Source: Escherichia coli
Lineage (GTDB): Bacteria > Pseudomonadota > Gammaproteobacteria > Enterobacterales > Enterobacteriaceae
Assembly (NCBI RefSeq): GCF_030384885.1
Contig: NZ_CP128613.1
Strand: one strand, 5' to 3'
Length of the DNA stretch: 64,000 nt
The position numbers were made by a program, and so were the translations under genes. Below, piece by piece: positions 7,386 through 22,996 of the stretch (position 1 is the first letter of the stretch; the number at the start of each line of letters is the position of its first letter). The notes below the pieces were generated by a model. It searched no databases, was not told where the DNA came from, and saw nothing but the letters and a program-made list of their open reading frames with translations.

Positions 7386-8648
7386 TTAAAACTCTTTTCG
7401 CAGCCAACTATTGAGTCGCTTGATCCACGAGCCAACTGATGCTGTAACACGTTTTTCTACTTCAGCTTCACCGTTAAGATGTGACTCTTTCCCATAGTGA
7501 AGCAATCCCACCGCCGTCGAATAATACGGCTCCTGAGCATAATCCGTTAAACCGGTAATGTTCAGCGGCGCGCCGATACGCACTTGCGTATGAAACACGC
7601 GCTGAGCACAGGCTGCAAGACCTTCGATCTGCGCTGCGCCACCAGTTAAAACAATGCCTGCCGCCAGGTGATGTTTAACCCCTTGTTGGCGAAGCTTTTC
7701 CTGCAACTGCAATATCTCTTCGTTGACCAGGTTGAGCAGCTCGGTATAGCGCGGCTCGATCACCTCTGCCAGGGTCTGACGTTGCAGACTCCGCGGTGGA
7801 CGACCGCCTACGCTAGGCACTTCCACGCTCTCATCTTTTCCAACGATGGAACCCAGCGCACAACCGTGGCGAACTTTAATCGCTTCGGCGTCGCTTGGCG
7901 GCGTGCCAAAGGCGTAAGCGATATCACTGGTCACGACATTGCCAGCATAAGGAATTACCTTAGTGTGGCGCAATGCCCCACCGGTATAAACGGCGATATC
8001 CATTGTACCACCACCGATATCGACGACGCAGACACCCAGTTCACGTTCATCTTCCGTCAATACCGAATAACTTGATGCCAGTCCGGCAAATATCAGTTGG
8101 TCAACTTTCAGCCCACAACGTTCAACCGCTTTGACGATGTTTTTCGCCATATCGTTGTGACATGTGATCAGGTGCACTTTTGCCTGCATCCGCACGCCCG
8201 AAAGTCCTACCGGATTCTTGATCCCTTCCTGATAGTCAATCGCATACTCTTGCGGGATCACATGCAGCACACGATGCTCATCGCGCACACGCACTGATTT
8301 CGCGGTATGGACGACGTTTTCCACATCTTCTTGCGTCACTTCTTCTTCAGAAATAGGCACCATACCAATTTCATTCTGGCAGCTGATGTGCTTACCAGAA
8401 AGCGCCAGATATACCGAAGAGATCTGACAATCTGCCATCAATTCTGCCTGGTCAATGGCGCGTTGTACGCACTTGACCACGGATTCGAGGTCGTTCACCC
8501 CGCCTTTATCCATACCACGCGACGGGCAGCTGCCCACGCCAATGATATTGACCATACCGTCGGGCAGAACTTCCCCTACTAAAGCGGCAACCTTCGCGGT
8601 ACCAATCTCCAGTCCTACTACCAGTTTTCTGTCCGTCGCCTTGATCAT
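7386..8648 (-). CDS. ftsA: cell division protein FtsA (actin-like ATPase)
   Basis: 420-aa ORF; dcw cluster synteny. Confidence 0.95.
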
Positions 8649-9475
8649 TGTTGTTCTGCCTGTGCCTGATTTTGTTGCTGAGTAGATTCCTCTGGCGGCA
8701 AGGGCGCCCAGCCTACTGCCGCTCCAGAGTCATAACGCAAATCAACGTAGCTAATCCGTTTGCCATCGGTTTGCGCCTGCTGCTGTAAAACCGGATAAAG
8801 TTCTACAAAGCGAGCCAAACGTTTCATCGTATCGCCCCGGCCAAGATTGAGCTTAATATCGTTATTCAGCGTCAACTGCCAGGAACGCCGCGCGGTCATC
8901 GCCGCTTCCTTCAGAGTAAATCTGTCCTTTGCCAGCATCTGCCCCATTTCGCGATAGCCCTGCAACACTTCATTGGCGCTGCCTTCCGGGCCATACAGCA
9001 TTGGAAGCACCTGCTTGCTGGTGCGATCTGGTGGTACGCTGAAAGTGTTTCCTTCCGCGTCTACCATATGTTGATCATTCCACCGCGCAATCGGCACATA
9101 TTCAACCAGATGAATCTTCAATTCATCAGGCCACTGCTTTCTGACGCTCACCTGCTTAATCCACGGCAGGCGTTGTTCTATTTGCGTCTGGATGATGTTG
9201 ACATCCTGGGTCATAAAGGTACCTGGCTCACCCAATGCCAGGATCGACTGTCGGATATCATCATTACGCGTGTAATGGCGTTCACCGGTCAACACCAGCT
9301 TTGAGAGCGGCAGGCGTTGCGCATCTTCCATCCAGCCCAACACGACCCAGCCGCTCACCAACACTGTCGTTAAAACGGTCAGCAGGAAAAGGATCCCCGC
9401 CAGACGCGTTCCATTATTGCGGCGCGAAGAAACTTCTTCTTCGCTGTTTCGCGTGTTCAGAGCAGCCTGCGACAT
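8645..9475 (-). CDS. ftsQ: cell division protein FtsQ
   Basis: 276-aa ORF with one N-terminal transmembrane segment; 4-bp overlap with ftsA. Confidence 0.93.
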
Positions 9476-9476
9476 A

Positions 9477-10397
9477 TTAGTCCGCCAGTTCCAGAATTCG
9501 TACTACCAACTGCGAGAAGCTCATACCTGCCTGACGTGCCGCCATCGGCACCAGGCTGTGGCTGGTCATACCCGGTGAGGTATTGGCTTCCAGCAGATAA
9601 AACTGTCCATCGCTGTCCAGCATAACGTCAATACGTCCCCATCCTTTGCAACCTAACGTCGTCCATGCTTTCAGCACTAATGCCTGCAAATTGGCCTCTT
9701 GTGACGCTTCCAGACCTGCGGGGCAGAAATACTGTGTCTCATCAGAGAGATACTTCGCCTCATAATCATAGAAGGTTCCGGCCGGTTGAATACGTATTGA
9801 CGGTAAAATTTCTTCACCAAGTATCGCAACCGTGAACTCCGGCCCACTTAGCCATTTTTCAATCAATACTTCTTCATCGTGCTGAAATGCCAATCTTAAT
9901 GCATCTTGTAGAGCATTTTCTGCTACTACTTTTGACATTCCCACGCTGGAACCTTCGCGACTCGGCTTAACGATAACCGGCAAACCTAAGGCAGAAATTT
10001 CTGCTAACTGCTTATCGCTCAGGCCTTTTTCAAACTCTGCGCGGGTTAATGCTACCCACGGCGCTACCGGTAAACCAGCGCCCTGCCAAAGCAATTTGCT
10101 GCGTAGTTTATCCATTGAAAGCGCAGATGCCATTACTCCGCTGCCGGTATAAGGCAAGCCCATCAGCTCGAGCATGCCCTGCAACGTGCCATCTTCACCA
10201 CCGCGACCGTGTAGCGCGATAAACACTTTCTGAAAGCCCATCGACTTCAGTTGCGTCACGTCGACTTCTTTCGGGTCGACAGGATACGCGTCAATACCGC
10301 CTTCACGCAGCCCGGCTAACACCGCTGCACCAGAATTCAGAGAAACTTCCCGCTCAGCGGAGGTCCCGCCCAACAGGACCGCGATTTTATCAGTCAT
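9477..10397 (-). CDS. ddlB: D-alanine--D-alanine ligase B
   Basis: 306-aa ORF; synteny. Confidence 0.95.
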
Positions 10398-21232: not shown

Positions 21233-21598
21233 TTATTTTTGCACTACGATATTTTCTTGTGACGGATCAACATGCTGCATTTGCAGCTTTTCCGTGGCGA
21301 TCCTTTCCACCCGGCTATGGTCGCCGAGCGCATTCTCTTCAAGGATCAGGTTGCGCCATTCAATGTCTAAAGCATCTCGCTCCAGCACCAGTTGTTCGCG
21401 CTGAGCGGTCAGCAAACGGGTGTGGTGCGCCGTGGTTACCACGGTCACCGCCGTCAAAATAATGCAAATGAACAGGCAGAGTGGCAGCTTCCCAAATCGC
21501 AATAGATCGTCACCGATAACACCAGGCAATGCATGGCGCTCGTGGCTTCCCATCGATCCTTTAACTTTGCTTAGAGCTTCTGTCACTCTGCTGATCAT
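21233..21598 (-). CDS. ftsL: cell division protein FtsL
   Basis: 121-aa ORF with a single transmembrane segment; synteny. Confidence 0.9.
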
Positions 21599-22536
21599 GC
21601 GTTCGTCCTCTCTGCAATACGCAGAACTGAACTACGGGCACGAGGGTTCTCAGCCACCTCTTCTTCGCCCGGCATTAACTTGCCTAGTGCTCGCAGCTGA
21701 CGGCCACCCAGTTTTTTGAGCTGCTCTTCAGTCATCGGTAACCCTGCCGGAACTTGCGGACCGCGGCTGTTTTCACGCATAAAGCGCTTCACAATGCGGT
21801 CTTCCAGCGAGTGGAAGCTGATGATTGAAAGCCGCCCACCCGGGGCCAGCACGTTGAGCGAGCTTTTTAGCGCCTGCTCTATCTCCTCCAGTTCACTGTT
21901 TACCCAAATGCGCACCGCCTGGAAGGTACGGGTCGCGGGATGTTTAAACTTATCTTTCACCGGCGTTGCGGCAGCCACGACTTCCGCCAGTTCTTTGGTG
22001 CGGGTCATCGGCTGTTCGCGGTTTCGCTCGACAATGGCGCGGGCAATGCGTTTGGCAAAACGCTCTTCACCATAGGTTTTCAATACCCAGGCGATATCGG
22101 CTTCTTCTGCGGTTTGTAGCCATTCAGCGGCTGACTGCCCACGGGTTGGGTCCATACGCATGTCCAGCGGGCCATCGCGCATAAAGGAAAAGCCGCGTTC
22201 TGCATCATCAAGTTGCGGTGAAGAGACACCAAGATCGAGGAGAATGCCGTCGATCTTGCCGATAAGATCGCGCTCGGCAACGTATTCGCCCAGCGCGGAG
22301 AAAGGTCCATGGATGATGGAGAAGCGCGGATCATCAATAGTCTTCGCAACGGCGATAGCCTGCGGGTCGCGATCGATCGCCAGCAAACGCCCCTCTTCGC
22401 CAAGCTGCGAGAGGATCAGACGTGAGTGACCACCGCGACCAAAAGTCCCATCAATGTAGATGCCATCAGGACGGATATTGAGGCCATTAACGGCTTCATC
22501 CAGCAGCACCGTAGTATGTTTATAGTTTTCCATCAT
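21595..22536 (-). CDS. rsmH: 16S rRNA m4C1402 methyltransferase RsmH (MraW)
   Basis: Start trimmed to [14 protein letters not shown] to give 313 aa; synteny. Confidence 0.9.
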
Positions 22537-22537
22537 T

Positions 22538-22996
22538 TTATAGAGACAAGTCCTGCAGTCGCTCCGATAAGTCTCCAGTAGCCAACTGCTCTGCGTCGAT
22601 ATCTTCCTTGACCTGTTGATGCCAGGTTGTTTCATCCCACAGCTCAAACTTGTTGAACTGTCCAACCAGCATCACTTCTTTTGTCAGCCCGGCATGTTGC
22701 CGCAGTACTGGCGCGATTAACAATCGACCGGCGCCATCCATCTGACATTCGCTGGCATGACCTAACAGAAGGCGCTGCACACGGCGCTCAACCGGGTTCA
22801 TGCTCGACAGACGCGATAATTTTTGCTCGATAATTTCCCATTCAGGCAGGGGGTAAAGCAGCAGGCACGGGTGATGAATGTCAATGGTGCAAACCATTTG
22901 ACCGGCAGCGTTCTCAAGCAGCTGTTCCCGATAACGGGTAGGCACTGATAAGCGCCCTTTGCTGTCGAGATTGACTAACGTTGCTCCCCGGAACAT
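22538..22996 (-). CDS. mraZ: transcriptional regulator MraZ
   Basis: Start trimmed to [15 protein letters not shown] to give 152 aa; first gene of the dcw cluster. Confidence 0.9.

Follow-up and report, generated by a model that had tools for sequence, protein, structure and literature searches.

The 64,000-nucleotide stretch of DNA analysed here (the window; Escherichia coli, contig NZ_CP128613.1) carries a block of genes that can be identified with high confidence as the canonical E. coli division-and-cell-wall (dcw, or mra) cluster, intact and with the exact architecture that it has in K-12. The genes lie on the minus strand throughout, in the order mraZ-rsmH-ftsL-ftsI-murE-murF-mraY-murD-ftsW-murG-murC-ddlB-ftsQ-ftsA-ftsZ-lpxC. 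The first-pass annotation, which was made from the sequence alone, had placed an intact dcw cluster at 8645-22996, and this is borne out by exact coordinates, full-length NCBIfam matches and colinearity with K-12. The interval extends exactly from the mraZ ATG, whose A is position 22996, to the ftsQ stop codon, whose TGA ends at position 8645 and overlaps the ftsA ATG at 8648-8646. Beyond ftsQ the cluster also takes in ftsA, ftsZ and lpxC, down to 5156, and an intrinsic terminator follows at 5129-5077. Both the dcw cluster and its compact layout are already known, and few features of the E. coli chromosome have been described better; the present copy has little weight as a discovery, and serves rather as a small worked example of junction geometry that is base-exact across genera.

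Gene content and order of the E. coli type are given alike by NCBIfam models, by colinearity with K-12 and by the annotation of a near-identical record. All 16 translations derived from the window match the expected NCBIfam family over their full length and above the cut-off. The near-identical record is that of E. coli 2013C-4282 (NZ_CP027579.1 2,624,572-2,642,412), the best match, which has one mismatch in 16 kb and the same PGAP annotation from ftsQ through mraZ. Over 24,001 positions the two sequences differ at two, 14622 and, outside the cluster, 27131; the former difference is synonymous and falls in murD codon 308, which is CTG in the window and TTG in 2013C-4282. At both positions the window has the base that is found in two other E. 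coli genomes. Longer open reading frames (ORFs) can be drawn for mraZ (from a TTG at 23032), rsmH (TTG at 22665) and ftsW (TTG at 14230, one codon more), and these were rejected in favour of the starts annotated in K-12 and the NCBIfam alignments.

In the description that follows, distances between neighbouring genes are in base pairs (bp), negative values denote overlaps, and every gene lies on the minus strand. The first gene, mraZ (22538-22996), encodes 152 amino acids (aa), matches the equivalog model TIGR00242 at 225 bits and has one aa change relative to K-12, Y41H. It is followed after a gap of 1 bp (+1) by rsmH, also called mraW (21595-22536, 313 aa), and this by ftsL (21233-21598, 121 aa) with a 4-bp ATGA overlap (-4), both genes being assigned from NCBIfam and from the annotation of the near-identical record. 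After +15 comes ftsI (19451-21217), encoding PBP3 of wild-type length (588 aa), which murE (17977-19464, 495 aa, GTG start) overlaps by 14 bp (-14). The murF gene (16622-17980, 452 aa) is joined to murE by an ATGA overlap (-4), mraY (15546-16628, 360 aa) overlaps murF by 7 bp (-7), and murD (14227-15543, 438 aa) follows mraY after +2. Next come ftsW (12983-14227, 414 aa), which shares one base with murD in the motif TGATG (-1), and murG (11919-12986, 355 aa), which overlaps ftsW in an ATGA (-4). The one real spacer within 8645-22996 (+53) lies between murG and murC (10390-11865, 491 aa), the latter with a weak Shine-Dalgarno sequence; ddlB (9477-10397, 306 aa) overlaps murC by 8 bp (-8) and ftsQ (8645-9475, 276 aa) follows ddlB after +1. 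Beyond that span, ftsA (7386-8648, 420 aa) is tied to ftsQ by an ATGA overlap (-4) and is likewise a member of the cluster, ftsZ (6174-7325, 383 aa) follows at +60, and lpxC, or envA (5156-6073, 305 aa), the final gene, at +100.

The copy was compared with the dcw (mra) cluster of E. coli K-12 MG1655 (b0081-b0096, NC_000913.3 89,634-107,474). Measured from the mraZ start codon (ATG) to the lpxC stop, each of the two is 17,841 nucleotides (nt) long, and they align without gaps, with 528 substitutions and no insertion or deletion (indel), at 97.0% identity. All 16 ORFs agree with K-12 in length and in their start and stop codons, and no internal stop occurs in any of them; the 16 proteins together show 19 aa differences, and the pooled ratio of nonsynonymous to synonymous divergence (dN/dS) is 0.013. 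Genes, order, orientation and all 15 junction distances down to lpxC are identical in K-12, as are the three TGGGN repeats described below, and the two clusters differ by substitutions only. The row of co-oriented genes is interrupted in this alignment by no foreign gene, insertion sequence (IS) element or indel, and colinearity without indels also holds over 24 kb with two further E. coli genomes. That no insertions break the cluster had been stated in the first-pass annotation, which named alignment with K-12 as the test that could refute it; that test has now been run, and the statement stands, with no frameshift over the 17,841 nt.

The same comparison bears on the reading that a lesion or clinical variant has been overlooked, whether a frameshift, an IS element or the four-codon YRIN/YRIK duplication of FtsI. 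Variants of this sort do occur in the species. Four-codon YRIN/YRIK insertions in FtsI have been reported in carbapenemase-producing E. coli, spread by homologous recombination across the dcw region (PMC6970295), and in E. coli strain B27 the mraY segment is triplicated in tandem and murD is frameshifted. The FtsI variants (YRIN, YRIK, YRIP or YTIP) are recognised by a duplication of four aa after P333, giving a protein of 592 aa. No such insertion was found in the window FtsI, which has 588 aa and a single YRIN in the motif; P333 and Y334 are contiguous, and there is therefore no YRIN/YRIK insertion. Associated with these insertions are the substitutions E349K, I532L and A413V (PMC6970295); the window protein has wild-type E349, A413 and I532 and departs from K-12 by D149E and I332V only. 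Together with the lack of indels and internal stops, these residues leave a hidden lesion with a probability close to nil, and that reading is rejected for this sequence. The outcome is a clean negative with respect to insertion, frameshift and resistance-type insertion in PBP3, and the copy departs from the K-12 cluster by substitutions only. As to likeness, the insertion-type clusters concern the same locus, and the patchy substitutions seen here are compatible with the recombination reported there (PMC6970295).

Packing was assessed over the 13 junctions between mraZ and ftsA. Neighbouring genes overlap by 1-14 bp at eight of them and are 1-2 bp apart at three; the other two, ftsL/ftsI (+15) and murG/murC (+53), both within the span, are loose and speak against uniformly tight packing. 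The first-pass annotation had described overlaps of 1-14 bp or gaps of a few bp from mraZ through ftsQ, which is right for 11 of the 13 junctions and wrong for these two, and the junctions that it gave as examples (ftsQ/ftsA at -4, murE/murF at -4 and murC/ddlB at -8) are correct. It could be argued that such spacing is due to chance or is simply typical of E. coli genes and no property of the dcw cluster. Overlaps of 1 and 4 bp are indeed frequent in the operons of E. coli, where about 15% of all ORF pairs overlap genome-wide (PMC5318159), and other operons in the window also have them (leuAB, thiBPQ and surA-pdxA-rsmA). The frequencies in the cluster nevertheless exceed those of its surroundings, with overlaps at 8 of 13 dcw junctions against 6 of the 30 other neighbouring gene pairs of like orientation that are annotated in the window (one-sided Fisher test, p = 0.011), and distances of at most 2 bp at 11 of 13 against 9 of 30 (p = 0.0012). 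Set against the baseline of about 15% (PMC5318159), eight overlaps in 13 have a probability of 1.6e-4, and of 0.018 if the baseline is raised to 30%. The packing of the dcw genes exceeds chance, and its explanation by ordinary spacing is very improbable.

The junctions are also conserved. In windows of 31 nt around the start codons (-25 to +6) 0.9% of positions are substituted relative to K-12, and 3.0% elsewhere (P = 0.0016); a low rate would be expected there from dual coding plus the presence of ribosome-binding sites. The overlaps from ftsI to murG (-14, -4, -7, -1 and -4) are kept in Klebsiella pneumoniae and Proteus mirabilis, at protein identities of 56-97%, and in Klebsiella the -4 overlaps at rsmH/ftsL and ftsQ/ftsA are kept as well. 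The interval between murC and ftsQ in Proteus mirabilis H110 (15453-15818) is a spacer of just 364 nt in which no ddlB was found, and ftsQ and ftsA are separated there by a gap of 45 bp instead of overlapping.

As is seen in coupled gene pairs, the stop codon overlaps or adjoins the next start codon at 11 of the 13 junctions, and we infer from this arrangement that translational coupling in the dcw cluster is plausible and in part to be expected. The mechanism has been investigated in E. coli by Huber et al. 2019, who reported strict or major coupling in four of five pairs with ATGA or TGATG overlaps (PMC6728339). The same motifs occur at five dcw junctions, as ATGA at rsmH/ftsL, murE/murF, ftsW/murG and ftsQ/ftsA and as TGATG at murD/ftsW; the termination-reinitiation (TeRe) pairs of that study include no dcw pair, and three of the dcw overlaps (7, 8 and 14 bp) are longer. 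The strength of the Shine-Dalgarno sequences, calculated as duplexes with the 3' end of 16S rRNA, divides the cluster. Strong sequences (-6.0 to -9.7 kcal/mol) precede ftsL, ftsI, murE, murF, mraY, ftsW, murG and ddlB; weak ones precede rsmH, murD, ftsQ and ftsA, each of which lies 1-2 bp from the upstream stop or overlaps it, and the four are therefore the best candidates for obligatory reinitiation. At murC the 53-bp spacer is accompanied by a near-absent Shine-Dalgarno sequence (-1.5 kcal/mol).

Several points count against coupling, or at least against its being obligatory. Of the eight starts that lie in overlaps, seven are preceded by a strong Shine-Dalgarno sequence of their own (-6.5 to -9.7 kcal/mol), and de novo initiation is therefore equally possible at them; the pair bioBF overlaps in E. 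coli and is not coupled (PMC6728339); and a literature search found no experiment on coupling at any dcw pair. The first-pass description of the junctions as "consistent with translational coupling" was fair as worded, given ATGA or TGATG at five of them, and should be read as going no further than that in view of these strong sites.

If coupling does operate, ribosomes ending one cistron would reach the next start codon and either reinitiate after termination or unmask the next ribosome-binding site, delivery at or near that start being favoured because there are almost no intercistronic spacers. The effect would be greatest at the junctions with weak Shine-Dalgarno sequences, that is mraZ/rsmH, mraY/murD, ddlB/ftsQ and ftsQ/ftsA, and the strong intragenic sequences at the remaining junctions would also permit independent initiation. 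A stronger version may tentatively be put forward, in which these four junctions depend strictly on termination-reinitiation, the overlaps with strong Shine-Dalgarno sequences are independent of it, the type of junction sets low FtsQ and FtsA and graded Mur levels, and the geometry is conserved by selection on the mechanism; taken as a whole, this is possible but unlikely. Should it be true, the junction type would be a hard-wired setting of low FtsQ and FtsA and of graded Mur enzyme levels on one transcript, and the base-exact conservation of the junctions across Enterobacterales would reflect selection on that reinitiation mechanism.

The overlaps might, on the other hand, be a passive by-product of compaction through drift of stop and start codons, with no coupling, each cistron being initiated de novo and the protein ratios being set by ORF-specific mRNA structure and the strength of the ribosome-binding sites. 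The levels of the dcw proteins differ widely, FtsZ for example being far above FtsQ, and strong intragenic Shine-Dalgarno sequences stand before ftsL, murE, murF, mraY, ftsW, murG and ddlB, both of which agree with separate initiation. ORF-specific translation efficiencies have been described within operons, where coupling was shown only "in some cases" (PMC5318159), and the uncoupled overlap of bioBF points the same way (PMC6728339). Drift without function accords less well with a geometry that is base-exact from ftsI to murG in E. coli, Klebsiella and Proteus, with the four weak Shine-Dalgarno sequences placed directly beside an upstream stop, or with the coupling of four of the five E. coli overlaps tested (PMC6728339). 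The threefold higher conservation of the junction windows also argues against it, though dual coding alone could explain this. On these grounds passive compaction is a possible but doubtful account of the overlaps.

With regard to transcription, long polycistronic mRNAs and internal promoters have been described for the dcw cluster of K-12 (PMC5089854, PMC7761207), and we infer from that knowledge that the window copy is transcribed likewise, from the promoter Pmra together with internal promoters. A Pmra-like promoter is predicted at 23048-23077 on the minus strand (TTGACA, an 18-nt spacer and TAAACT); it is the best sigma-70 match of the scan, with 10 of 12 positions, and differs from K-12 by one substitution, at 23060 in the spacer. 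Its position fits the transcription start that has been placed 38 nt upstream of mraZ (PMC5089854). Downstream of it, at 23015-23039 on the minus strand, three direct TGGGN repeats with 5-nt spacers (TGGGA-aattg-TGGGG-caaag-TGGGA) can be read from the sequence as a putative MraZ operator. A TGGGN pattern is reportedly the MraZ operator according to Eraso et al. 2014. The MraZ protein of E. coli has been found to bind spaced repeats downstream of the -10 box (PMC7761207). At the level of the sequence, then, a promoter and a spaced-repeat operator both lie upstream of mraZ.

At the other end of the cluster, the terminator after lpxC (5077-5129, minus strand) comprises a 44-nt G+C-rich hairpin with a predicted folding energy of -21.6 to -23.8 kcal/mol, followed by a run of nine T (sequence after the fold, TTTTTTTTT). 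It lies in the lpxC-secM spacer, which measures 230 nt both here and in K-12, with five substitutions in the window copy. The sole terminator of the cluster has been placed at this point, after envA/lpxC (PMC5089854, PMC7761207), and in the window, too, an intrinsic terminator was found only there. A simple terminator scan missed the real lpxC terminator, which was found by folding. The consensus scans weigh against a transcriptional reading drawn from the window itself, as neither gave an excess over shuffled sequences within the cluster (9 promoter matches against 14.4 +/- 3.7, and 26 terminator-like matches against 22 +/- 4.5), so that internal promoters rest on the K-12 literature and not on the window sequence. 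The operon would work as follows: a long polycistronic transcript would start at Pmra upstream of mraZ, MraZ would repress it at the three TGGGN repeats, the internal promoters known from K-12 within ddlB, ftsQ and ftsA would supplement it, and transcription would stop at the hairpin and T run beyond lpxC.

The place of this copy in the species was examined by megablast of window positions 8000-24000 against 5,426 complete E. coli genomes. Of these, 5,424 contain the region, which in 5,423 occupies a single colinear place. Identity to K-12 varies in patches, being about 99% at mraZ, ftsA and lpxC and 92-96% from mid-ftsI to murG; synonymous divergence (dS) is 0.03 in mraZ, ftsA and lpxC and 0.22-0.24 in murF, mraY and murD, and reaches 0.14 in ftsZ, although this gene is flanked by two at 0.03. 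For the murE-ftsW segment, two of 5,424 genomes are at >=99% identity, 911 at 95-99% and 4,511 at 90-95%, and other E. coli genomes show long stretches of 99-100% identity broken by diverged patches. A foreign import of the central dcw genes, which the 92-96% identity to K-12 and the two genomes at >=99% might suggest, was considered and rejected: the other window genes equal or exceed them in divergence from K-12 (pooled dS 0.168, against 0.128 for dcw), and the alleles are shared piecewise within E. coli. The divergence appears, from these sequence comparisons, to be that of an ordinary lineage combined with mosaic homologous recombination, as documented for the dcw locus (PMC6970295). The lineage of the strain is distant from K-12, with mosaic recombination.

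A few other records call for comment. E. coli B27 (NZ_AP027424.1 3,864,603-3,875,573) is the sole genome in which the dcw match is split in two pieces; a segment of about 1.6 kb (the 3' end of murF, mraY and the 5' part of murD) is triplicated in tandem and murD is annotated as frameshifted, which may reflect either true amplification or an error of assembly. The match of window positions 4000-9000 to E. coli Nord8 (NZ_CP139794.1) splits at query base 2172 (window position 6171), about 3 bp past the ftsZ stop, on the ftsZ-proximal edge of the ftsZ/lpxC spacer; this break, with two places in the record, suggests a rearrangement parting lpxC from ftsZ. Copies of dcw filed under plasmids (three places from the megablast above, and further records of Escherichia and Klebsiella) were discarded as evidence of mobility, since the top matches are 0.27-5.4 Mb long and so represent chromosomes or very large replicons entered under the wrong heading. 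Several such "plasmid" records with ftsA and ftsZ, of 0.27-5.4 Mb, are evidently mislabelled in this way.

Two RNAs annotated in K-12 can be mapped onto the cluster. The ORF-internal small RNA (sRNA) FtsO (b4810) corresponds, through the ungapped alignment, to 19972-20145 on the minus strand within ftsI, with 1 of 174 nt different, and its position gave no Rfam match at the gathering threshold. The antisense RNA StfZ (b4840) maps to 7131-7682 on the plus strand, with 3 of 552 nt different. The only Rfam match at the gathering threshold in 4500-24000 was to RF02797, PssrA (plasmid-encoded Shigella sRNA A), at 7317-7406 on the minus strand (106.9 bits against a gathering threshold of 69). The matched sequence consists of the last ftsA codons, the ftsA-ftsZ spacer, or ftsZ leader, and the ftsZ ATG. 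The pssrA gene was published at about 103,842-103,931 on pCP301, between CP0121 and ipaJ (PMC3071730), and comparison of that locus with window positions 7317-7406 gave no similarity; a real PssrA gene at this place was rejected, the pCP301 locus being unrelated and the match being the ftsZ leader. Read on the E. coli/Shigella chromosome, the numbers 103,842-103,931 fall near the ftsA/ftsZ junction, and the match itself corresponds to K-12 105,224-105,313. The family was probably mis-seeded by applying plasmid coordinates to the chromosome and, if so, the ftsA/ftsZ junction of any E. coli will be labelled a plasmid sRNA by RF02797.

Elsewhere in the window there are further differences from K-12. 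At about 33780-33890, between leuD and sgrT, setA, which K-12 has between sgrT and leuD, is absent and the spacing is only about 107 bp. The interval between rluA and djlA (about 51760-52700), which in K-12 holds yabP and yabQ, contains in the window the type III secretion system effector gene espY1 together with a transposase fragment that is frameshifted. Between apaH and folA (about 59952-61530) lie two features absent from K-12, a CcdB-family fragment and a gene of the "plasmid pRiA4b ORF-3 family", and apaH itself measures 849 nt in the window and 843 nt in K-12.

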